64,000 nucleotides of DNA from an uncultured bacterium (GCA_963844965.1 CAWJQC010000004.1:1-64000); one strand, 5' to 3'. Shown: positions 6,286-52,180, counted from the first letter of the stretch. Made by a program: numbers and translations. Notes: generated by a model from the sequence alone, not told the origin.

Positions 6286-6675
6286 CTACTTTTTTAAAAA
6301 TTGCCTGCTTATTCTTTTCCCCTCCAGATAAACTATAAAACTGCCTGTTTGATTGGCTAAATCCTCAAGTTTGCCGTTAATCCGGCTGAATTGCGCGCCG
6401 GAAATATAACCGACGGCTAACGCAACGTGAAGTTGGTTCCTTGTTTCGCCCACAGAACCCTTGGCGATTTTTAGGTAACGGATAAATTCATTGTTGTTGT
6501 TCTTTTCAAAACCCTCGGCAATATTGGAACTGATGGAGATAACGGCTCTTCTTATCTGATCGCGCAGACAAAAATCCCTGGAAAATTCTTTCTGGCTGGT
6601 CAAATCGTAAATTTCCTTCGTTATTTCCAAACTCAACTTCCAAATATTCAAATCCTCAAATTTAGTTATTCTCAT
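6286..6675 (-). CDS. Four-helix bundle protein (PF05635/TIGR02436, the 23S rRNA intervening-sequence protein family)
   Basis: 129 aa; typical ...ISISSNIAEGF..., ...KGSVGETRNQL... motifs; flanked by inverted CGAGTTAACGAG repeats (6251-6278 and 6688-6711). Confidence 0.8.
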   Translation of the reverse strand: MRITKFEDLNIWKLSLEITKEIYDLTSQKEFSRDFCLRDQIRRAVISISSNIAEGFEKNNNNEFIRYLKIAKGSVGETRNQLHVALAVGYISGAQFSRINGKLEDLANQTGSFIVYLEGKRISRQFLKK

Positions 6676-9312: not shown

Positions 9313-9881
9313 CTAGAGTTTTTTGTACTCAATAATTATCTCCTGTTTATCTTTCAGGACCAGATTCTCATATTCGGTGCTAGGTTTGCCGTCAACGGTC
9401 ATCGTGAGTTCATGATCGGCGTCGCGATAATAATCCATTATCCAGTCCTTGGAAAATCTCTCGCCCCAGACGGCGAAGAAATCCCCCAACGTGAACGGCG
9501 TATTATCATAGGGCTCTACGTCAATCGTTCCGCTCGCGTCGTCCGTGTGGATTATCCGCTCGCAATCCGCGGTGAGGCCAATGCCGGCCGGTATCGTGAC
9601 GCTCTTGCCGTTAACGATGATCGCGAGATGCGGATAGATGCGGTATTGCTGCGGAGGCGGATTCAAGAAACTCGCGCATGGCACTTCGTGGATGGCAGAG
9701 ACAGCCGTATTAGAGCTTGAAGCGGCGTTCGGCGTGCTGCTTTCTTCGGTCTCTACGGAAGGAGCCGTGCCGAAACTGGCATGCGCGAAAGTCCGCCCAA
9801 CCCCATGACCACGGTGAGACCCATGATGACCACGAGAACTATTGTGAGCGTTCTTTTGCCGCTGCCGCTTTTCTTTTTCAT
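9313..9881 (-). CDS. Hypothetical protein with N-terminal TM segment (MKKKSGSGKRTLTIVLVVIMGLTVV...); frame-shifted about 80 codons in
   Basis: ATG at 9881 overlaps the GIY-YIG stop as ATGA; downstream ORF 9313..9684 is in another frame. Confidence 0.4.
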
Positions 9882-10135
9882 CCCGTTAGAGACAGGAAAC
9901 GCTTTAACCTATTCTTGAGGTAGCGCTTACCCATGCCAGACTTTAAATATTTTTCTCTCGACTTTGCATCTTCCTCATTAAGACATGCTTCGTAATATAT
10001 CAGACGATACGGTCCATTATAGCTGGTATATTTCGATTTCCTTGCATTGTGGTCATTAAAGCGTTTCCGTAAATCCGAGGTATATCCTGTGTACCAACGT
10101 CTATTCTTATTTTCTAATACGTATACGTAGTACAT
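9878..10135 (-). CDS. GIY-YIG nuclease family protein (85 aa)
   Basis: N-terminal YYVYVLEN...RWYTGYTSDLRKRFNDHN is a GIY-YIG motif; gene lies between inverted repeats atcccgttagagac (9880-9893) and gtctctaacgggat (10146-10159). Confidence 0.8.
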   Translation of the reverse strand: MYYVYVLENKNRRWYTGYTSDLRKRFNDHNARKSKYTSYNGPYRLIYYEACLNEEDAKSREKYLKSGMGKRYLKNRLKRFLSLTG

Positions 10136-10199: not shown

Positions 10200-10640
10200 A
10201 TTCTATAACATAATCGCAAGCGGGTCTAATAACACCTTGCCAGGTCGCCTGCCTGCCGGTTTACCCGCCGAAGGAGGACAGGCAGGTCTAACGGCCCACG
10301 CACCAAAACAAAGTTTGGTACGGGGTAAATAGGACATCGGCCGGCGCGAAGTCCCGCATAAAGCTGCGGGGTCGTCTAACTTGCCCCGCCGCACTTTAAA
10401 AAATCAAAAATAAATTTCTTGCCAGTGCTGCCGGGTCGTCTAATGGTAGGACATCGGCCTTTGGAGCCGAGTATCTTGGTCCGACTCCAAGCCCGGCAGC
10501 ACTGGCCGGAAAAGTGCGGCGGGGTGAAGTAGGACACGGGCCTTTGGAGCCCGGTATGAAGGTTCGATTCCTTCCCCCTCAGCACGAGCCACCGCAGTAT
10601 AATCCGACCCTACTCGCCATAGGTCGAGGAAGGCCGGATA
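10200..10640 (+). repeat. Cluster of tRNA-like repeats and pseudo-tRNAs; GTAGGACA(T/C)(C/G)GGCC occurs three times, gtcgtctaa twice, plus a P1/P2 palindrome
   Basis: Recurrent tRNA D-arm and anticodon-arm-like segments; only one unit folds into a complete cloverleaf. Confidence 0.5.
10429..10499 (+). tRNA. tRNA-Gln (anticodon TTG), no encoded CCA
   Basis: Acceptor tgccggg/cccggca, 3-bp D stem gtc/gac, anticodon stem tcggc/gccga with loop ctttgga, T arm cttgg-tccgact-ccaag; unusual C55 in the T loop. Confidence 0.5.
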
Positions 10641-11176: not shown

Positions 11177-11185
11177 TTCTGTCGG

Positions 11186-11258
11186 GCCGCTGGGAATCGA
11201 ACCCAGTCTTTATCCGCCAAAGGCGGACAGGCGCACCCTCACCCCCACACCGATTGTA
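11186..11258 (-). ncRNA. tRNA-like 3' portion (anticodon arm with TTT, T arm ctggg-ttcgatt-cccag, acceptor 3' strand cggcccg) directly downstream of tRNA-Pro
   Basis: Lacks its own 5' acceptor; the complementary cgggccg lies at 11399-11405 on the far side of tRNA-Pro. Confidence 0.5.
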
Positions 11259-11263
11259 ATTTG

Positions 11264-11334
11264 TCGGGGAGCCGGGAATCGAACCCGGTCTTCACGCACC
11301 CGAAGCGCGCGTACTGCCGGTATACTACTCCCCG
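11264..11334 (-). tRNA. tRNA-Pro (anticodon CGG)
   Basis: Acceptor cggggag/ctccccg, D arm gtat-accggca-gtac, anticodon stem cgcgc/gcgtg with loop ttcgggt, T arm ccggg-ttcgatt-cccgg. Confidence 0.75.
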
Positions 11335-11405
11335 GTAAATTGGTGTGGGGGCGTGGCGCACGCCTGTCCGCCTCCGGCGGATACTACCGGTATACTACGG
11401 CCCGT
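11335..11405 (-). ncRNA. tRNA-like 5' fragment (acceptor cgggccg plus D arm tagtataccggtagta, nearly identical to the tRNA-Pro 5' half), followed by a tccgcc-ggag-ggcgga hairpin and an inverted-repeat arm caggcg...cccccacacc
   Basis: No T arm; its 3' tail is complementary to the head of the 11186-11258 fragment (ggtgtggggg...cgcctg). Confidence 0.5.
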
Positions 11406-15545: not shown

Positions 15546-15600
15546 TCACGCTCCAGGGCTGGTTAAAACCGCATCTGCACAATATCCTCATTTTTTACTG

Positions 15601-15680
15601 TGGACCCGCCGGGAATTGAACCGGGACCACTGCCTACCGGCAGGCAGGTCAGCAACTCCGCACATAAACTTGTCATAACC
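15601..15680 (-). ncRNA. Non-canonical tRNA-like element: encoded CCA and a T-arm-like segment joined to a P1 palindrome (ctgcctaccggcaggcag) in place of a normal D/anticodon region
   Basis: tggacccgccgggaattgaaccggg is the reverse complement of a tRNA 3' end; no full cloverleaf can be drawn. Confidence 0.35.
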
Positions 15681-15694
15681 CGGTCGCTTAAAAA

Positions 15695-16123
15695 TCACTT
15701 AATTAAAGCGAGGGAGAGCAATACTGCCGCTAAGGAAAGAATGATTAACCCGGAAAAAAATATATAATCAGCAACGTTCTCATAAAGATTAGATCTGCGT
15801 TCAGAAGCCGCGCGCATTGACATGAAGGAGAACAGGCTGCTTACGCAGAATAAAAGAATCTCCGCAGTTGCAATTTTGTCAATTATAGTTATGTTCGGCA
15901 GACCAAGAACCCTGACGGTGGTAAGTACTATGAACGAAAAACCTACCAGGTTTGATGAGGCATTCAATATGTGGGGTGAATTATTATTGTTGTCGTTGTT
16001 GGTAGACATGAGTAGATATAAATAGTTTATAGTGGATTTTGGTGGACCTAGGCGGAATCTCCCGATATTTCTCCCGACTTTAGTCGCGGATGAAATATCG
16101 CGGATACTCGATTTTGTAATCAA
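15695..16123 (-). CDS. Hypothetical small membrane protein (likely start at the internal Met, MSTNNDNNNN)
   Basis: ORF with two or three TM helices. Confidence 0.4.
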   Translation of the reverse strand: MITKSSIRDISSATKVGRNIGRFRLGPPKSTINYLYLLMSTNNDNNNNSPHILNASSNLVGFSFIVLTTVRVLGLPNITIIDKIATAEILLFCVSSLFSFMSMRAASERRSNLYENVADYIFFSGLIILSLAAVLLSLALIK

Positions 16124-16180
16124 ATCGGAGATTTGAACAAAATCGGGAGAACCGCCGCCTCGTCAATGTCCCGATAGCTG

Positions 16181-16254
16181 TGGTGGACCCACCGGGAATT
16201 GAACCCGGACCTCGGCAATGCGAATGCCGCGTAATGCCGTTTTACTATGGGCCC
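16181..16254 (-). tRNA. tRNA-Ala (anticodon CGC), CCA encoded
   Basis: Acceptor gggccca/tgggtcc (one G-U pair), D arm gtaa-aacggca-ttac, anticodon cggca-ttcgcat-tgccg, T arm ccggg-ttcaatt-cccgg. Confidence 0.8.
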
Positions 16255-21203: not shown

Positions 21204-21317
21204 TTGTTTCCATTTTATTGCACTATCCAAGAAACGTCAACCTGCGAAGGCAACTCCAATTATATCGTTGTATAAAACAAAAAAGCGGCGGAATTCGTGT
21301 CCTCGCCGCATGAACCC

Positions 21318-21345
21318 CCACACCTATGCATAGGTGTGGGGGTGA
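21318..21345. repeat. Perfect 28-bp palindrome cccccacacctatgcataggtgtggggg after gene 21348..21758
   Basis: Self-complementary; the cccccacacc motif recurs in the tRNA-Pro locus inverted repeats. Confidence 0.7.
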
Positions 21346-23460: not shown

Positions 23461-24622
23461 ATGTTTGTATGCTTGCGGAATTTTCCGGTACCTGCTATAA
23501 GATTCTTAATGAAAAAATCATTGTTTGGGATTATACTTGGGTGTTTACTTGTTTTCGCGCCGGAGTATTTGGTGAGCGCGACTTATCACTTTTCAAATTA
23601 CCAGGGCAAGCCGCCGCTGCACATTTACCGCTACGCAGAGAAAGCGCCTTCGGGCGTCACGCCGAGCGAAATAAAAGCAGTTTACAATCTGCCGAGCCGG
23701 GGCGGGCATGGAACAATCGCGCTAATCGGCGCCTACGACGACCCGACAATAGAGAAAGATTCTGAATACTTTCAGTAGCGCCTTCGGCCTGCCAACGTGT
23801 ACGACAAAGAATGGCTGTTTTGAAAAACATAAGATGGTGTCGTCGGTCGCGGCTAATTCCGGCTGGTCCCTAGAAACATCGCTTGATGTGGAATGGACTC
23901 ACGCCATCGCGCCGGACGCGAAAATTCTTTTAGTGGAAGCGAAAACTCCGAGCGGCGCGAATTTATTGAAAGCGGTTGATTATGCCGCGTCGCGTGCCAA
24001 TGTCGTTTCCATCTCCATGAGCTGGGGCGGCGCGGAATTCCCGGAAGAAACAGGCATGGACAGCCACTTTACGAGCAAAGCCAGCGCGGTTTTCTTCGCG
24101 TCTTCCGGCGACGACGGCTGGGGCGCGAGCTGGCCCGCTTCCTCGCCCAATGTTGTTGGCGTCGGCGGCACAACTCTCAATCTTTCCGCTACTGGGAAAT
24201 TGGTTTCCGAGACCGCGTGGTCGGGAAGCGGCGGCGGAGTGAGTTCCTACGAATCCCAGCCCAATTACCAGAAATCCTACGATATTCCCAAAGCGAACGG
24301 AAAGCGCGCGATACCGGATGTTTCTTACGACGCCGACCCGCAATCGGGATTTCCAGTTTACCGCACGACGGGCTCCTCAAAGAACGGCTGGTTCACTTTG
24401 GGCGGCACGAGCGCCGGCTCCCCGCAGTGGGCGGCAATCCACTCGCTCGGCCTTTCCGTTTCGCTCCAGAAACTTTACGACGACAAATCGTCCGCCGACA
24501 ACGCGAAATATCTCCGCGACATCGTAAGCGGCGCGAACGGCACGTGCAAATATTATTGCGAAGCGAGAAAGAGATACGACTATGTCACCGGCCTCGGCAG
24601 TCCGCAGACGACTAAGTTCTAA
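23461..24622 (+). CDS. Secreted S8/S53 (sedolisin/kumamolisin-like) serine peptidase; +1 frame shift near 23750
   Basis: Signal peptide; ...IEKD|NTFSSAFGLPTCTT continues in the next frame (extra t in gattctg); C-terminal GTSAGSPQWAA catalytic Ser motif. Confidence 0.7.
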
Positions 24623-24993: not shown

Positions 24994-25099
24994 CTAACCG
25001 AAGCAAGCAAGGCCCTGTGTATGCGGGCCTCTTTTATTTCGTTTTTGTGCGGGGTATTGGACCAGGTTCGAACCTATTTTAAGTCCATAGTTTGACAGG

Positions 25100-25522: not shown

Positions 25523-25607
25523 ACTTAATTATACTCCTATTTAAATAGATTCGCTCTAAGGTTCGAACCTATTTTACCCAATTAAAATCTATACTTTTTG
25601 TCTTTGT

Positions 25608-25688
25608 GCGCGGGAGAGGAGTCGAACCTCCATGCCTTGCGGCGCTACCACCTCAAGGTAGTGCGTCTGCCAATTTCGCCACCCGCGC
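25608..25688 (-). tRNA. tRNA-Leu (anticodon GAG), long variable arm
   Basis: Acceptor gcgcggg/cccgcgc, D arm gcg-aaattggcaga-cgc, anticodon ctacc-ttgaggt-ggtag, T arm ggagg-ttcgact-cctct. Confidence 0.75.
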
Positions 25689-25829
25689 AGATACTAACAA
25701 TTATCCTAAATTTATAAAAAAATGCAACAAACAAATCTGTAATCCGTCGCATGCGTTTTTGACTTTATAGGCCGATATTTATAAAATTACATCAGCCATC
25801 CACCATGGACGTTTGAAGGATGCCAAAAC

Positions 25830-26468
25830 ATGAACAAGAAAAATGAAATCCGGGGAATCGTGTTTGATCTTGGCGGTGTTTTGGTCCGGAGCTTCGAGTT
25901 TAATTTCTATAAAGTCGCCGGACGAAAAATTGGGCTGTCTCCTTCTACAATTGCAAAGATAGCGGAAAGCGAATGGGCAACGCTTGAGGTGGGAAAAGAA
26001 ACAAACAGCGAGCTGTGGCATCGGATCGCAAAAAAGCTTGGGAATCCAGGCCTCGGCAACGTACTGGCCTCGTTGTGGCTCAGACACTATAAACGCGATG
26101 CGAAGATCAAAAAAGCAGTCCTCGAAATAGTGAAGCGTCTACACCATAAGTACAAAATGGGCGTGATCTCAAACACACAAAGAGAGCACAGTATTGTCGA
26201 CAGGAAAAGGGGGCTTTTTAAACATTTCGATGTCGTACTCCTCTCGAACGAAATCGGCTTAAGAAAACCGCAGCATGAAATTTTCGCGCTCGCATCTGAG
26301 AAGTTGCGGGTTCCGCCTCAAAATCTGCTTTTTATCGATGACGATAGCCGATGGACGACGACCGCAAAACGATACGGGTGGAAGGCTTTGCGATTCATTT
26401 CCGCCCGCCAACTCAAAAAATCGCTCAAACGACTGGGAATCCGAACGAATCGTCGGTCGAAATCCTAA
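25830..26468 (+). CDS. HAD-superfamily hydrolase (subfamily IA-like)
   Basis: IRGIVFDLGGVLV motif I with downstream HAD motifs. Confidence 0.8.
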   Translation: MNKKNEIRGIVFDLGGVLVRSFEFNFYKVAGRKIGLSPSTIAKIAESEWATLEVGKETNSELWHRIAKKLGNPGLGNVLASLWLRHYKRDAKIKKAVLEIVKRLHHKYKMGVISNTQREHSIVDRKRGLFKHFDVVLLSNEIGLRKPQHEIFALASEKLRVPPQNLLFIDDDSRWTTTAKRYGWKALRFISARQLKKSLKRLGIRTNRRSKS

Positions 26469-26576
26469 TCCTGAAAACTAATGGCGCTTCCAACAGAGCG
26501 CCGTTTTTATTTGCAATTTAAAAATTATAATTATAAGTGAGCTTTTCACTGGCTTTGCGCCTGCCTACCGACAGGC

Positions 26577-26601
26577 AGGTCTGCCAATTTCGCCACCCGC
26601 G
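26577..26601 (-). repeat. Duplicated 5' end of tRNA-Leu (gcgcgggtggcgaaattggcagac) fused to a P1 palindrome (cctgcctaccgacaggcagg, 26560-26579); no T arm, so a tRNA fragment
   Basis: 25/25-nt identity with 25664-25688. Confidence 0.75.
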
Positions 26602-26701
26602 CGGGCACAGATAGAATTATAAACAAATTTCTCGTCATTTTCAAACCACCGAAGCTCATCGGGACTTTATTTGCTTACGCAAAGTATGCTAACATGTAGT
26701 C

Positions 26702-28145
26702 ATGTCCCCGAAGAAATTCTCCAGAACTAAAATAATAATCATTGTAGTTGTCGTCGCGCTCGCGGCCTGGCTCATTTATAAAATCGCAAATCCTAAACCG
26801 CCGGCAGTGAACGAGGTCACGGCAACGCGCGGAAACATAACGCAGAATCGTAAGCGTCACGGGAAACGTGGAACCGGCCGAAAACGTTGATCTCGCTTTT
26901 GAAAAATCCGGCACGGTAACCGGCGTCTACACGGATGTCGGCGAAATCGTGTCCGCCAGCCAGAAATTGGCCGAACTTGACACGTCGGAGCTCGCGGCGA
27001 GTCTGGCCAAAGCGCAAGCGGATGTGGCAACGCAACAGTCGGACCTGAACAAAACCGAGGTCATCCTCGCCAATTATTATGCTAGCGCTCCCGACATCCT
27101 GAACGATGCCTACACAAAAAGCAACGATGCGGTTAAAACACAGATTGACCCGATGTTCACAGACACGGACATAAATAATCCGCAGCTGACTTTTTCGGTT
27201 CTCAATTCGCAGGAAGTGACCGACGCCCAATCCCAGCGCCTGCAAATGAACAATATCCTGAGCGATCTCTTGACCGAAATAAATCAGCTGATTCCGAGCT
27301 CGTCAAGCATGGTTGAAGCGACGCTCGCCGACACCCAGTCAAAACTTACGACAACTCGCACTTTCCTTGACTTGCTCGCGAAGGTAGTTGACGACTCAAA
27401 CAATCTTACCGCTTCCACCGCGAGCACCTACAAGACGTCGCTTACCACGGCGCGAAACGAAGTAAACACGGCGCTCACCAACATCAATGACGAGGAACAG
27501 AACGTCGCCGTGGAGAAAGCGACCGCCTCCTCGGACCAGGCCGCGATAGAAAGTTCGCAAGCGGACATACAAAACATACAGGCGCAGATAAGCAAGGCCA
27601 CCCTCTACTCCCCGATTGACGGCACGGTAACGCGCGAAGACGCCAAAGTCGGCGAGATCGCGCCCGCCAACACGACGTTAATTTCGGTGATTACCGCTTC
27701 CAACCTAGAGGTTGACGCGGACATTCCCGAAGCCGACATCGCAAAAGTCAAAATCGGCAATCCCGCGGCGATAACGCTTGACGCCTACGGCAGCGATGTC
27801 GTCTTTGACGCCAAAGTCATCTCCATTGACCCGGCAGAAACGATGATTGAGGGCGTCGCAACATACAAAACCAAATTTCAGTTCGTTAAAAATGACAGTC
27901 GTCCCAAATCCGGCATGACCGCGAACATTGACGTCATGACTGACAAGCACGAGAACGTGGTCCTAATTCCCCAGCGGGCTGTGACAGCTCAAACCGACGG
28001 CAAATACGTGCTCGTGGATAATGGCAATCCGCAAAAACCGGAAGAACGTCTGGTGCAGACCGGACTCCGCGGCACCGACGGGAATGTGGAAATCACGGAC
28101 GGGCTCAGAGAAGGAGAAAAGGTGATAATTCCGACGCTGGAATAG
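26702..28145 (+). CDS. Efflux-pump periplasmic adaptor (HlyD/MacA family), frame-shifted near 26850
   Basis: N-terminal TM then ...VTATRGNITQN|(frame change)...GNVEPAENVDLAFEKSGTVTGV, a typical MacA lead-in; coiled-coil and beta-barrel regions. Confidence 0.7.
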
Positions 28146-30984: not shown

Positions 30985-31284
30985 CTAAACCGATACACCT
31001 AATTTTTGGCGAATGCGCGCGCCGGATTCCTTGCGCACCCAATATAATTTAGCCCGGTGAACTTTTTTCGGTGAACTAACGACTGTAACCTTGTTAATAG
31101 CCGGTGAGTGTATAGGATAAACTTTCTCCACGCCGACGCCCGCGACAATCGCGCGCACCGTAAAGGTCGCGCCGGCCTCCGTTCCGTGCTTGCGCGCGAT
31201 GACCAATCCCCCGAACGGGACTTTACCTTCGTAAACCTTCACCCGCGCGCCGGGCTTTATTTTCTTCAGAAGTCTCCAGGTCAA
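30985..31284 (-). CDS. rplS: 50S ribosomal protein L19
   Basis: 99 aa; FTVRAIVAGVGVEKVYPIHSPAI...RRAKLYWVR. Confidence 0.85.
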   Translation of the reverse strand: MTWRLLKKIKPGARVKVYEGKVPFGGLVIARKHGTEAGATFTVRAIVAGVGVEKVYPIHSPAINKVTVVSSPKKVHRAKLYWVRKESGARIRQKLGVSV

Positions 31285-31762: not shown

Positions 31763-32340
31763 TTGCGTGGGCAGTCGTGAATTTTACGCGGAAATGAACT
31801 TCCGCGCCGATCTGCGTTATGTCTGCGCTTGTCTGCGGTTGAACTTCGCCCGATATCTGAAAAAGAGCTTTTTAGTTGTCCCAACCTATCATGAAACACG
31901 CAACCTGAAACATGGAACATTACAAAATGTTTCATGCTTCATGTTTTATACTTCGTGCTTCACGTCGACTAACTATTTGTTAATAGTTTAATTGATCCAC
32001 GGGCAGCTTCCGCTACTCGTGCCTTGTTACGACTTATCCCATGTCACCGAGCTTAAGCTAAATCGCCTGAGGCGATCTTCACCTACTCCCGGCTCCCTTG
32101 GATTGACGGGCAGTGAGTACAGGACTCGAGAACGTATTCACCGCAACATAGCTGATTTGCGATTACTAGCGATTCCAGCTTCATGAGGGCAGGTTGCAGC
32201 CCTCAATCCGAACTGAGACCGGGTTTGATGGGATTAGCTCCGCCTTGCGACTTCGCAACCCATTGTCCCGGCCATTGTAGCACGAGTGTAGCCCAGGGCA
32301 TCAGAGGGCCATGCTGATTTGACGTCATCCCCTCCTTCCT

Positions 32341-32439
32341 CCCCGCTCAGAAACCACGAGACATGAGACACACGTCACGACTCACAAATTTATTGTGCAT
32401 CGTGCTACGTGTATCGTGCATCATGAACTCTGAGCGGGG
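32341..32439 (-). other. 16S intervening sequence 1: about 100-nt hairpin insertion closed by an 11-bp stem (ccccgctcaga/tctgagcgggg) in the helix 39/40 region
   Basis: Sequence between the conserved 1100 and 1190 blocks replaced by a self-complementary insert. Confidence 0.7.
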
Positions 32440-32511
32440 CAGTTTCGCGTGACACTTGTAACACACGATAGGGGTTGCGCTCGTTACCCCACTTAAGGGA
32501 ACACTTCAAAG

Positions 32512-32542
<31 letters not shown>

Positions 32543-32669
32543 ACGTGACGTCCTTGAGAGAGGGCCCGCCTTTCGGCAAGCTTTCGTCACGAATTTCAAG
32601 CCCTGGTAAGGTTCCTCGCTTACTGTCGAATTAAACCTCATGCTCCACCGCTTGTGCGAGTCCCCGTCT

Positions 32670-32701
<32 letters not shown>

Positions 32702-33161
32702 TCCCAGGCGGCCGACTTAACGCGTTAGCTCCGCCACTCCGAGGGTCGATACTCGAAACAGCAAGTCGGCATCGTTTAGGGCGTGGACTACAAGGGTATC
32801 TAATCCTTTTTGCTCCCCACGCTTTCGCGTCTCAGAGTCAGGAAGGTCCCAGTGCCATGCCTTCGCCTTTGGTGTTCCGCACGATATCAACGGATTTCAC
32901 CCCTACACCGTGCGTTCCAGGCACCTCTAACCTCCTCTAGTTTCGCCGTATCTCCTGCACTTCCACCGTTAGGCGGTGGGATTTAACAGAAGACGCACGA
33001 AACCTCCTACACGCTCTTTACGCCCAATAAATCCGGATAACGCTCGAGGTCTACGTATTACCGCGGGTGCTGGCACGTAGTTACCAACCTCTTTCCGTAT
33101 GGTACGGTCACCCAGCACTTTTGGAACGAACTTTTCTAATTTGCTCAAATTTTTGGAGGTA

Positions 33162-33190
33162 TTGACAACAGCAATCACTTCTGCTATAAT
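33162..33190 (+). promoter_or_regulatory. Perfect consensus sigma70 promoter (TTGACA-17-TATAAT) inside IVS-2, oriented antisense to the rRNA
   Basis: ttgacaacagcaatcacttctgctataat. Confidence 0.6.
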
Positions 33191-33269
33191 GCCCATAGCA
33201 CATTGGGAGACCAACGTGCCGCACGTCGGGCCTCAGCCCTTGTGCAATTCCCAAAAGGAGAATTGATTT

Positions 33270-33461
33270 ATGCGTGCCAAATTCCCGTCACAAGTCACGG
33301 ATCGAATACTGGAAGCAGCCAAGAAAGAGTACTCCTTCCAGATCAATCATGCGGAATTAGGGCGGCGGCTGTTTACGCGCAAGCACTGTGGCACGAGAAT
33401 GGTTCAGGTAAAAGTCTTTCTGCAAGGAAGACAACAACCTGCCATACTCGGAAAACAATAA
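33270..33461 (+). CDS. 63-aa ORF inside 16S IVS-2, antisense to the rRNA (MRAKFPSQVTDRILEAAKKEYSFQINHAELGRRLFTRKHCGTRMVQVKVFLQGRQQPAILGKQ); has its own promoter, SD and terminator
   Basis: SD aaaaggagaa 6 nt before ATG; intrinsic terminator ctgccaccagaagctttccggtggcag plus TTTTTT at 33543-33575. Confidence 0.45.
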   Translation: MRAKFPSQVTDRILEAAKKEYSFQINHAELGRRLFTRKHCGTRMVQVKVFLQGRQQPAILGKQ

Positions 33462-33542
33462 CCACAGATGCACGGACGCCGCAGTATGCCCCGTTTGTTT
33501 GCTGGCATATGTCATGACTAACGACTAGCTGCCACCTTTCTA

Positions 33543-33575
33543 CTGCCACCAGAAGCTTTCCGGTGGCAGTTTTTT
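33543..33575 (+). terminator. Rho-independent terminator of the IVS-2 mini-gene
   Basis: 11-bp GC-rich stem followed by a T6 run. Confidence 0.6.
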
Positions 33576-34434
33576 AAATCCAAAAATTTGAGCAAATTAG
33601 TTTTCCCGCCAAAAGTGCTGGGTTCTTCCCATACTACCGCAGTTTACAACCCGAAGGCCTTCTTCCTGCACGCGGCGTCGCTCGATCAGGCTTTCGCCCA
33701 TTGTCGAATATTCTCGGCTACTGCCACCCGTAGGTGTACGAACCGTTTCTCAGTTTCGTCGTTGGGGGTCAGGCTCTCACCTCCCCTACCGGTCATAGCC
33801 TTGGTAGGCCGTTACCCTGCCAACTAGCTGATCGGACCTAGGCCGCTCTTGGAGCGTCTTGCGACTTTGGATGCGAATGGCTTTCGCCCCCGCATCATCA
33901 TCAGGAATTACCCCGCCTTTCGGCGAGCTGTGCCCGTCTCCAAGGTACGTTACCAAGGTGTTACTAACTCGTTCGCCGCTCACTATTTTCCTTGCGGAAA
34001 ATAGTTCGCTCAACTTGCATGCCTTATCCACGCCGCCAGCGTTCATCCTGGACCAGGATCAAATCCTCAGTAAAAATCGCGCATTTATTCAATACGCGAG
34101 ATTGTGCGCCATGCATGACGCCCAAACTCGCGCATCTCACTCGTGCGTGAGTTCATACCGCGATTGATTTATTGATCTCGGTTTATTTCAATTCCAAACC
34201 GAAAAATGAATCTTATTGGGACAACTAAAAAACTCTTTTTTATTTACTTTTCTCATATTAATTTTTCAATCTGCAGTCGGCGCAGTCCTTTACCCCGCAC
34301 ATTACCTTCGGTAATAACGGGGCGAGCAACAAAACATCCCCCCTACACATTCTAAACCTCAGAAGAATGTGTAGGGCGGATGTCTTTAGACACACCATAA
34401 TATTGAGATATCAAACCTATCCGTTTTCCATATT

Positions 34435-46340: not shown

Positions 46341-47460
46341 TTTAGACACAAAGGTCGAAACAAACTACCATTGTGTCATGAGCAACAAAAAAGGGCATCG
46401 GATTGCAAAGGAAGTGAAGGCGGACATCCTCCGCCGCGTGAAGGAAGAAGGCGTTTCGGTGGCCCAAGCCGCGAAGGACCACGGCTTGCACGAGTCCACC
46501 ATCTATAACTGGCTCGGAGCCGGAGCGGCAGGCGCTCCCTCGTGGAGCGAGTTCTCCCGCCTGCAGAAGCAGAACCGCGAGCTCTTTGAGGTGGTGGGCG
46601 AGCTCACCGTGAAGCTCTCTCAGGCCCAAAAAAAGAGTTGACGGAGAAACGGGACAAGTCGGCCCTGGCCAGGGCCATGGGCGTCTCACGGGCATCGCTC
46701 TACTACGTTCCGAAACAGTACGCGAAGGATTGGGCATTCAAGATCCTGATCGAGGAAGAGCTGCGGCGCCATTCCTCGTACGGCTCGCGGCGCCTGGCGC
46801 AAGCCCTCCACGCGAACCGCAAACGGACCAGGCGTGTGATGAAGCTCTTTGGCATCAAGCCATACCGGAGGCGGGGCAAGAAATATCGTAAATCAAAGGC
46901 ATCGCGGGCCTTTCCGAACCTCTTACTTGCCATCATGCCCTCGTACGCGAACCACGTCTGGGCAACCGATTTCACGGAGTTCCTGTATCGCGGCAAGAAA
47001 GTGTACGTGTCCACGATACTCGATCTTTTCACGAGACGATTGATGGGCGTCCATGTGGCGTTGCGGAAAGGATCGCCCCTCACGATACAGACCCTGGCCA
47101 ACGCGCTTTTCCACCATCCGCATCCGGTCATCTTCCATTCGGACAACGGCAGCGAGTACAAGGCACGAGCGTTCACCGATACACTGGGGGACTGTGGCAT
47201 CACGATCTCGCGGTCGCGGCCCGGTGCCCCATGGGAAAACGGCTACCAGGAATCGTTCTATGACAAGTTCAAGATTGACCTCGGTGATCCCAACCGGTTC
47301 GGGACCTTCGGCGAGCTCGTGGCGGAGATCTACAGCACCTTGTGGCAGTACAACCACACGCGGATCCACTCCGCCCTCAAGATGCCGCCGTCCGTGTTTG
47401 CCGAGAAGATTGCGGCTTAACGAAAAAAAACGGCAAAAAGCCGTCGAATCACTGTCTAAA
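46341..47460 (+). mobile_element. IS3-family insertion sequence (about 1.1 kb); orfA 46378..46641 (HTH) and orfB 46638..47420 (rve integrase/DDE) joined by a programmed -1 frameshift at A AAA AAG (46626-46632); terminal inverted repeats tttagacacaaaggtcgaaac / ccgtcgaatcactgtctaaa
   Basis: OrfB DFTEFLY...HSDNGSEYKARAF...ENGYQESF; slippery heptamer at the orfA end; GC content clearly above the flanks; exact ends uncertain by about 20 bp. Confidence 0.8.
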
Positions 47461-52142: not shown

Positions 52143-52180
52143 GCCGAATGAGCCGAGGAGAGGAGTCGAACCTCCAACCT
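52143..52180 (-). ncRNA. tRNA 3' fragment (T arm ggagg-ttcgact-cctct, identical to that of tRNA-Leu, plus acceptor 3' strand cctcggc) directly downstream of tRNA-Thr(TGT)
   Basis: No room for a 5' half before the adjacent tRNA; a complementary acceptor strand gtcgagg lies at about 52402-52408. Confidence 0.5.

Follow-up and report, generated by a model that had tools for sequence, protein, structure and literature searches.

In a 64,000-nt stretch of DNA from an uncultured bacterium (CAWJQC010000004.1:1-64000; hereafter, the window), the 5′ end of a tRNA-Leu(GAG) gene recurs upstream of that gene, and a gene for a HAD hydrolase lies between the two copies. The second copy is a fragment of a tRNA-Leu gene in which a short palindrome, P1, was inserted precisely after nt 23 and which is truncated near nt 32. 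This stub is probably the conserved left end of a module found in other genomes of the Candidate Phyla Radiation (CPR), composed of a P1-split tRNA-Leu stub, a small GIY-YIG nuclease gene, and an intact tRNA-Leu gene, with the HAD unit placed in the slot of the nuclease gene in the window. The module is a tiny, recurrent GIY-YIG/tRNA-Leu unit that is apparently undescribed; searches of the open-access literature yielded neither an account of P1 nor one of GIY-YIG genes at bacterial tRNA-Leu genes, and an earlier description may exist elsewhere.

The repeat was an exact direct repeat of 24 nt (GTCTGCCAATTTCGCCACCCGCGC), whose copies at 25665-25688 and 26579-26602 correspond to nt 1-24 of tRNA-Leu(GAG) in the same orientation. 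The original prediction, made from the sequence alone, was right about the repeat itself, but gave its length as 25 nt and coordinates that were off by one. No such match was obtained in 100 shuffles, and BLAST gave an E value of 1.6e-8. P1 (CCTGCCTACCGACAGGCAGG), which forms a perfect 7-bp stem with a 6-nt loop, abuts the second copy, and the 24th base of the repeat doubles as the last base of the palindrome. Past P1, the tRNA sequence resumes as CGCAAAGCC, the first four bases of which are exactly nt 24-27 of the resident tRNA; 8 of its 9 bases are identical to nt 24-32 (CGCACAGCC) of the tRNA-Leu(GAG) allele at locus L256 of another genome. The post-P1 bases of the window (CGCAAAGCCA) thus matched L256 (CGCACAGCCA) at 8/9 positions, compared with 6/9 for the resident tRNA (CGCACTACC). 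Read on the tRNA strand, the second copy consists of GCGCGGGTGGCGAAATTGGCAGA, CCTGCCTGTCGGTAGGCAGG, and CGCAAAGCC, and excising the 20-nt P1 regenerates tRNA nt 1-27 exactly. The copy had originally been described as fused to P1 and lacking the rest of the tRNA; the fusion was confirmed, whereas the tRNA sequence proved to continue with nt 24-32. Similarity in the flanks outside the repeat, tested on both sides, was no better than in shuffles and ended at tRNA nt 1 and near nt 32. The 23-nt 5′ segment of tRNA-Leu was conserved across phyla (95 species-representative loci); the 80 loci listed each contained it once in a stretch of at most 8 kb. A split, permuted, or intron-containing functional tRNA was rejected as a candidate for the stub, which ends at about nt 32 and has no 3′ part in the window. 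Likewise, Rfam detected no intron or ribozyme at the locus.

A near-consensus promoter ends 13 nt upstream of stub nt 1, and in L045 and L066, relatives with an empty site, tRNA-Leu(GAG) is preceded by the same TTGAAA and TATAAT hexamers. For these two reasons, the stub has the appearance of what was once the 5′ end of an expressed tRNA-Leu gene, with a putative promoter of its own; the promoter and terminator calls in this study are consensus matches from which functions were inferred. The consensus scan flagged no comparable promoter upstream of the intact tRNA-Leu gene of the window. Since transcription from the predicted promoter would run through the stub and antisense to the HAD gene, and since the P1 stem was invariant in very divergent lineages, the stub and P1 might instead have been retained for a function: they could form a structured 5′ leader driven by that promoter, act as a decoy, or yield an antisense RNA to HAD. 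We regard such a function as quite improbable, because no Rfam family covered the stub plus P1, P1 was found in either orientation and in a wide range of unrelated contexts, and a hairpin resembling a terminator follows P1 on the minus strand at a distance of about 55 nt.

The junction found in the window, that is, tRNA-Leu nt 23, P1, and nt 24, was common to loci L203 (anticodon caa), L256 (gag), L260 (cag), and L248 (taa). Cases of a stub with P1 covered all five Leu isoacceptors in unrelated CPR contigs, P1 following nt 15 in L177 (tag) and L109 (caa). The canonical layout consisted of tRNA-Leu nt 1-23, P1, and nt 24 to 32-38, followed by a linker, an open reading frame (ORF) of 77-90 aa encoding a GIY-YIG domain only, and an intact tRNA-Leu gene. 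In all P1-split Leu loci, the intact tRNA-Leu gene adjoined the stub in the same orientation and a GIY-YIG-only ORF lay alongside; this ORF occupied the interval between stub and tRNA in most loci and was located just downstream of the tRNA in L203 and L109. In L203, nt 1-23, P1, and nt 24-48 were followed by the tRNA and then the ORF. P1 flanked the ORF on both sides in L177, and L109 contained a single pseudo-copy in two halves, with P1 in each, around the tRNA and the ORF. The ORFs of these three loci each encoded about 79 aa (PF01541) and were accompanied by an adjoining intact tRNA-Leu gene. Nested older stubs were observed in L256 and L203.

Because L203, L177, and L109 had been selected through P1, a blind test that started from a protein list was added. 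The L109 protein had 1,012 homologues, in CPR and Bacteroidota, from which three (P0259, P0208, and P0256) were picked from the hit list without regard to P1 or tRNA. All three, at 20 loci, showed the order stub with P1, ORF, and tRNA-Leu, with linkers of 15-30 nt; the tRNA began 0-9 nt after the ORF or overlapped it. The isoacceptors were taa (L248-255), gag (L256-259), and cag (L260-267). L256-L258 were located directly downstream of rplS, which is the locus occupied in the window; L259 was on a short contig, on which the module was visible and rplS was beyond reach. The spacing from stub to tRNA in canonical modules was 305-385 nt (L256, 305; L260, 313; L248, 312; L177, 385). Among the best 120 members of this protein family, 26 had at least 88 aa, and 11 of the 26 contained a P1-encoded peptide, in most cases as part of an N-terminal extension translated across the junction, such as MAELADLPAGRQAR (tRNA nt ~9-23 and P1). 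The other GIY-YIG family, represented in the window by an 85-aa protein, contained this peptide in none of 120 members.

Arrangements of the same kind were present at other tRNA genes. L061 and L134 had the design of stub, palindrome, GIY-YIG gene, and tRNA at tRNA-Cys and tRNA-Thr genes, respectively, with palindromes unrelated to P1 (Table 1). In L223, a tRNA-Gln gene was followed by P1, a 13-nt 3′ fragment, and then a GIY-YIG gene.

P1 was not confined to tRNA-Leu genes. A scan of metagenome contigs with CTGCCTACCGNCAGGCAGGTC yielded at least 121 P1 sites, at least 112 of them with distinct, unrelated flanks, and the base completing the stem was C at 110 of 112 sites, though the search pattern left it unspecified. 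In these 112 contexts, neither a target-site duplication nor general complementarity of the flanks was found around P1; there was only a small excess of extended stems. The sites were mainly intergenic; P1 was also found in frame within protein-coding genes (for example, in L161), encoding LPTGRQV or LPAGRQ, in loop C of a 5S rRNA gene of otherwise full length (L127, 12852-12982, 58.6 bits), and after nt 12 of a second, full-length tRNA-Ile copy (L248). The window carried five intergenic copies in 64 kb, compared with one in 667 kb of other tRNA-Leu loci. As a short palindrome with many copies in mainly intergenic, unrelated contexts, P1 resembles the repetitive extragenic palindromic (REP) sequences. 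No match to Y1_Tnp, the domain of the Y1/HUH transposases of the REP-associated tyrosine transposase (RAYT) type, was found among the window ORFs scanned with Pfam. Matches of viral contigs to the P1/tRNA junction were discarded as chance matches inside coding sequences.

The wide dispersal of P1 raises the alternative that the window arose by independent local events without any GIY-YIG nuclease: a second tRNA-Leu copy, tandem or ectopic, would have been truncated, P1 would have inserted alone through GGCAG microhomology in the D-loop, and HAD would then have landed by illegitimate or homology-facilitated recombination. This alternative agrees with several observations. P1 occurs in the at least 112 unrelated contexts mostly far from GIY-YIG genes, among them, besides the 5S rRNA and tRNA-Ile cases, a stub without an ORF upstream of tRNA-Val; its arm GGCAG equals the tRNA-Leu D-loop motif TTGGCAGAC; the spacer between rplS and tRNA-Leu tolerates varied inserts; and the window locus lacks a nuclease gene. 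However, five lineages share the nt 23/24 junction with nt 24-32 after it, as part of one GIY-YIG module, all three blind-sampled nuclease genes carry the junction, and random insertion of P1 would not keep hitting one nucleotide of a redundant, co-oriented upstream copy. We therefore consider a purely local origin unlikely.

The window shares with L256, L260, L248, and L203 a stub (26551-26602) composed of nt 1-23, P1, and the nucleotides from nt 24 onward, located upstream of an intact tRNA-Leu gene and co-oriented with it. It differs from them in two respects: the place of the GIY-YIG ORF between stub and tRNA is taken by HAD on the other strand, and the spacing is 914 nt. The wider spacing can be attributed to the HAD unit, which is oppositely oriented and self-contained (promoter, ORF, and terminator) and fills the slot. 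The window is thus likely to contain a derivative of the module that is devoid of its nuclease gene.

Several points weigh against this interpretation. The defining part of the module is absent, as no GIY-YIG ORF or recognizable trace of one was detected between stub and tRNA by tblastn and hidden Markov model (HMM) searches, and the 914-nt spacing lies outside the canonical 305-385 nt. No second example of HAD, or of any other non-nuclease gene, was found in the Leu slot. As the 23-nt segment is conserved across phyla, two identical copies are no proof of a recent local duplication, and the closest genome, with a nucleotide identity of about 74%, is insufficient for ordering the events. The case for mobility consists of presence and absence in distant genomes, five isoacceptors, and nested stubs, and no excision or insertion junction was observed. 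Finally, a 78-aa catalytic domain without a DNA-binding domain would be an unusual homing endonuclease, and the intact tRNA copy would stay a potential target.

The HAD gene, predicted to encode a HAD-IA (variant 3) hydrolase, scored 50.8 bits against TIGR01509 (cutoff, 29.4), and its motifs FDLGGV, SN, K, and FxD were invariant in 11 homologues. As originally proposed, it was the sole gene between the repeats, being the only ORF there with Pfam or NCBIfam support. Its homologues (≤59% identity; 57-59% in L001-L004) were located in unrelated contexts, never beside tRNA-Leu and with no tRNA, and no P1 was linked to those of L001-L004. The GC content of HAD (47%) was not decisive in comparison with the window mean of 51 ± 4%. 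No GIY-YIG similarity was detected at 25689-26560 by tblastn and HMM searches, and searches combined with manual translation revealed no trace of such an ORF in the 140 nt and 90 nt flanking HAD.

The gene for ribosomal protein L19, rplS, is the usual upstream neighbor of tRNA-Leu(GAG); it was found upstream of tRNA-Leu in 37 loci, with a gap of 76-375 nt in 33 of them. L066, with the order response regulator, rplS, 215 nt, and tRNA-Leu, represents an empty site, so that the uninterrupted locus sought in other genomes does exist, albeit in distant relatives (L19 identity ≤75.8%). In the window, rplS and tRNA-Leu are 5.3 kb apart, and the region is indeed an insertion relative to other genomes, with the HAD homologues lying elsewhere. 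From rplS, the 5.3-kb segment contains two small ORFs with a P1-like palindrome of expanded loop between them, macB, macB, a frameshifted macA-like gene, the stub, and HAD, and its genes are all on the plus strand. The stub repeat is located inside this accessory segment, not at its edge, and the repeats do not bound the insertion. The locus was thus observed in three states: empty, occupied by the canonical module (L256), or occupied by other inserts (L094, L045, L047, and L069). The nearest relative, L094, is a Paceibacteria metagenome-assembled genome (MAG) with about 74% nucleotide identity. In L094 (6346-6542), a 16-18-nt copy of the 3′ end of its own tRNA-Leu(GAG) occurs about 90 nt downstream, past a GC hairpin; direct copies of the tRNA-Leu 3′ end, 100-250 nt downstream, were also seen in L013, L017, L036, L039, L053, and L064.

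The original prediction attributed the repeat to integrase-mediated insertion at a tRNA gene. A tyrosine-integrase element at the tRNA-Leu 5′ end, with the 24-nt repeats as attL and attR and the integrase since lost, would account for direct repeats of a tRNA end that flank an accessory gene missing from the locus in other genomes. This origin is very improbable. In agreement with the earlier statement that no integrase remains, none of the 56 window ORFs scanned with Pfam had a Phage_integrase or resolvase domain, and the sole recombinase was an rve DDE transposase (46638-47417) 20 kb away. Moreover, the repeat is the 5′ end of the tRNA, its second copy runs past the palindrome into nt 24-32, unlike a shared attachment core, and the repeats fail to bound the 5.3-kb insertion; elsewhere, the same architecture holds only a 78-aa nuclease in about 310 nt, which leaves no room for an integrase. 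The split fragment being the conserved left end of a module, the attachment-site duplication was not upheld, and the 5′ targeting that had seemed unusual for an integrase is a regular feature of the GIY-YIG/tRNA-Leu module. The label of a decayed cassette or recombination scar remains fair in general terms, apart from integration by an integrase.

That the arrangement was created by misassembly or chimeric joining of the metagenomic contig is hardly credible. The source is probably a MAG, and frameshifted genes (macA-like and S53-like) occur nearby; however, separate assemblies made by different projects contained the same junction. A repeat of 24 nt also falls below the usual final k-mer size and would not give rise to a stub that is joined to a palindrome and has a promoter of its own. 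The macA-like (HlyD-family) adaptor gene (26702-28145) consists of two overlapping frames near 26850, owing to a frameshift or a sequencing error; intact genes for the macB ATPase and permease come next. Two ORFs (23461-23778 and 23834-24622), neither of which had a Pfam match, look like one split secreted sedolisin-like (S53) peptidase. Just downstream of tRNA-Leu, an exact 18-nt direct repeat (AGGTTCGAACCTATTTTA; 25064-25081 and 25559-25576), which contains a 12-nt palindrome, flanks two small membrane-protein ORFs (55 and 57 aa).

Returning to the module, its sequence features suggest a selfish, homing-endonuclease-like element, whose mobility is argued from the empty and occupied states of one locus, the five Leu isoacceptors, the nested stubs, and the occurrence in two phyla. 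In the proposed mechanism, the element would enter a tRNA gene at about nt 23/24, equipped with a 5′ tRNA segment of its own. The promoter and nt 1-23 of the target would be left as a dead stub capped by the palindrome, and a working tRNA would be rebuilt downstream from nt 1-23 of the element and the remainder of the target. Transcription of the ORF, which lacks a promoter, would start at that of the tRNA, and the tRNA would be freed by RNase P. The resulting order, U-[1-23]-P1-[24-3x]-linker-ORF-[1-85], could originate by cut-and-paste of P1-[24-3x]-linker-ORF-[1-23] between nt 23 and 24, or by a Campbell-type single crossover of a small circle with a P1-split 5′ segment. The occurrence of P1 in either orientation would suit recognition by a symmetric dimer. 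In the window, the HAD unit may have replaced the nuclease gene or may have been inserted later between stub and tRNA.

A wider proposal is tentative and in our view doubtful. The stub and P1 may be the ends of an unrecognized class of very small Patescibacteria cassettes, moved by catalytic-domain-only GIY-YIG nucleases that act on the palindrome. In that case, P1 would be a sequence of REP type that the nucleases recognize and that also spreads by itself into rRNA, tRNA, and coding sequences, while the cassettes would insert in tRNA genes, rebuild the tRNA, use its promoter, and be mobilizable in trans with other cargo, such as HAD at tRNA-Leu and, in mirror image, a small membrane protein at tRNA-Ala.

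Table 1. Positions of the features described in the text (window coordinates unless a locus is named; minus strand, -; plus strand, +)
Feature	Position	Strand	Basis or remark
Intact tRNA-Leu(GAG)	25606-25688	-	ARAGORN; Rfam tRNA model, 49.6 bits
Repeat copy 1	25665-25688	-	nt 1-24 of intact tRNA-Leu(GAG)
Repeat copy 2, tRNA-Leu nt 1-23 (5′ stub of truncated tRNA-Leu gene)	26580-26602	-	Repeat search, BLAST
P1 palindrome CCTGCCT-ACCGAC-AGGCAGG, 20 nt, between tRNA nt 23 and 24	26560-26579	none	
CGCAAAGCC, tRNA-Leu nt 24-32 resuming past P1	26551-26559	-	Comparison with resident tRNA and L256 allele
Putative near-consensus promoter of stub, TTGAAA-17-TATAAT	26616-26644	-	Consensus scan, 11/12 matches
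HAD-IA (variant 3) hydrolase gene, 212 aa	25830-26468	+ (antisense to tRNA-Leu)	Pfam HAD_2, Hydrolase; TIGR01509
Putative sigma-70-like promoter of HAD, TTGACT-17-TAAAAT	25759-25787	+	Consensus scan, 10/12 matches; function inferred
Terminator-like hairpin after HAD	26480-26505	+ (also readable on -)	Consensus scan
rplS (L19)	30985-31284	-	Pfam Ribosomal_L19
P1-like palindrome with expanded loop	30507-30556	none	Sequence
Intact tRNA-Ala	16181-16254	-	
Hydrophobic ORF, 104-142 aa, after tRNA-Ala	15695-16123	-	No family match
P1 at tRNA-Ala	15629-15648		
tRNA-Ala nt 44-72, fused to P1	15600-15628		93% identity
tRNA-Pro(CGG)	11263-11334	-	Between ~39-nt inverted repeats, 11213-11251 and 11342-11381
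85-aa GIY-YIG gene, other family	9880-10135 (with ends to 10158)	-	11-nt terminal inverted repeats, CCCGTTAGAGA and TCTCTAACGGG
tRNA-Cys nt 1-23, 30-nt perfect palindrome, nt 24-27, GIY-YIG, tRNA-Cys	L061, 3950-4310	-	
tRNA-Thr stub split after nt 10 by two palindromes, GIY-YIG, tRNA-Thr	L134, 4800-5250	-	

Related arrangements were found elsewhere in the window. The mirror-image case at tRNA-Ala spans 15600-16254, and P1 lies there exactly in place of the anticodon arm. The inverted repeats around tRNA-Pro(CGG) each start with the hairpin TCCGCC-NNN-GGCGGA, and the whole unit (11181-11404) is nested between the 5′ half (11382-11404) and the 3′ half (11181-11212) of a second tRNA-Pro-like gene; joined in silico, these halves yield a cloverleaf. 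A related palindrome (ACCCCCACACC...GGTGTGGGGGT) is located at 21314-21343.

The 85-aa GIY-YIG protein of the window had 5,640 homologues, 70-86% identical, in many Patescibacteria lineages. Copies of its gene in L220, L223, L225, and L228 were located between operon genes (COX1/COX3/COX4 and glycosyltransferases) with the same ends, and judging from these ends and contexts the unit looks like a miniature free-standing homing-endonuclease-like element.

Fragments of other tRNA genes were also observed. The tRNA-Gln gene (10429-10500) is preceded by a P1-like hairpin whose loop is large (10248-10286) and by fragments of tRNA-Gln in scrambled form (10330-10342 and 10369-10379), and downstream of it is a degenerate second tRNA-Gln-like gene (10515-10582) that was detected by Rfam only (32.8 bits). 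Just downstream of tRNA-Thr(TGT) lies the isolated 3′ portion of a class II tRNA (52148-52178), comprising variable arm, T arm, and acceptor strand without a 5′ half; its T arm is identical to that of tRNA-Leu over 20 nt. The 16S rRNA gene (31985-34074) measures 2,090 nt against a 1,533-nt model, which indicates insertions typical of CPR. Besides the rve transposase gene, the window contains a gene for a 23S_rRNA_IVP-family protein (6289-6675).

CPR (Patescibacteria) genomes are small and had been regarded as poor in classical mobile elements; nevertheless, insertions abound in their structural-RNA genes. The module combines a promoter-less gene for a 78-aa nuclease, placed within the transcribed 5′ portion of a tRNA gene, a tRNA rebuilt downstream, and a near-invariant palindrome capping the old 5′ end. 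If mobile, it would be among the smallest autonomous elements known, would explain pseudo-tRNA fragments that confuse annotation, and would make the 5′ regions of tRNA genes, beyond their 3′ ends, entry points for accessory genes such as HAD in streamlined genomes. P1 would be a candidate recognition site for a very abundant, uncharacterized GIY-YIG family, of which the two subfamilies searched yielded 1,012 and 5,640 homologues.

In integrase-type islands at tRNA attachment sites, the direct repeat is the attachment core, normally the 3′ part of the tRNA, and bounds the whole insert. Similar to these islands, the module has cargo adjoining an intact tRNA gene, a direct repeat of part of the tRNA, an element-supplied tRNA part that keeps the gene functional, and empty sites. 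In contrast, the module duplicates the 5′ part, has no integrase, carries a stub capped by a conserved palindrome, and measures about 310 nt with a 78-aa GIY-YIG protein. For the window locus, an empty-site counterpart was found in distant relatives, whereas a recombinase for the site and a bounding repeat of a 3′ core were absent.

Free-standing GIY-YIG homing endonucleases are known from phage T4 as the Seg and Mob proteins, and SegB is encoded in the tRNA gene region of T4. The module resembles them as a small, presumably selfish GIY-YIG gene wedged between or beside conserved genes. It differs in that its proteins consist of the PF01541 catalytic domain only and are accompanied by a target duplication and a palindrome; homing and cleavage by these proteins are putative.

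REP palindromes flank the genes of RAYT (Y1/HUH) transposases. Similar to REP sequences and REP doublet-forming hairpins (REPINs), P1 is short, GC-rich, dispersed, and mostly intergenic, and it flanks a small nuclease gene in L177 and L109. Unlike them, the candidate enzyme is a GIY-YIG and not an HUH/Y1 protein, and its link to the repeat is putative; P1 is also 20 nt long, near-identical across distant lineages, and present in rRNA, tRNA, and coding sequences.

Mobile elements have been associated with tRNA-Leu genes before, a group I intron being located in the anticodon loop of tRNA-Leu(UAA) in cyanobacteria and plastids. At the locus described here, in contrast, there is no intron or ribozyme; the functional tRNA is continuous, the interruption being confined to the dead stub.

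Non-intron insertions in CPR rRNA genes, some encoding GIY-YIG or 23S_rRNA_IVP proteins, are located in many cases at the tips or bases of stem-loops (Tsurumaki et al. 2024, PMC11270868); the main text of that paper does not mention tRNA or palindromes. The P1 copy in a 5S rRNA loop fits this pattern, whereas the module duplicates the 5′ part of a tRNA and thereby leaves the gene uninterrupted.

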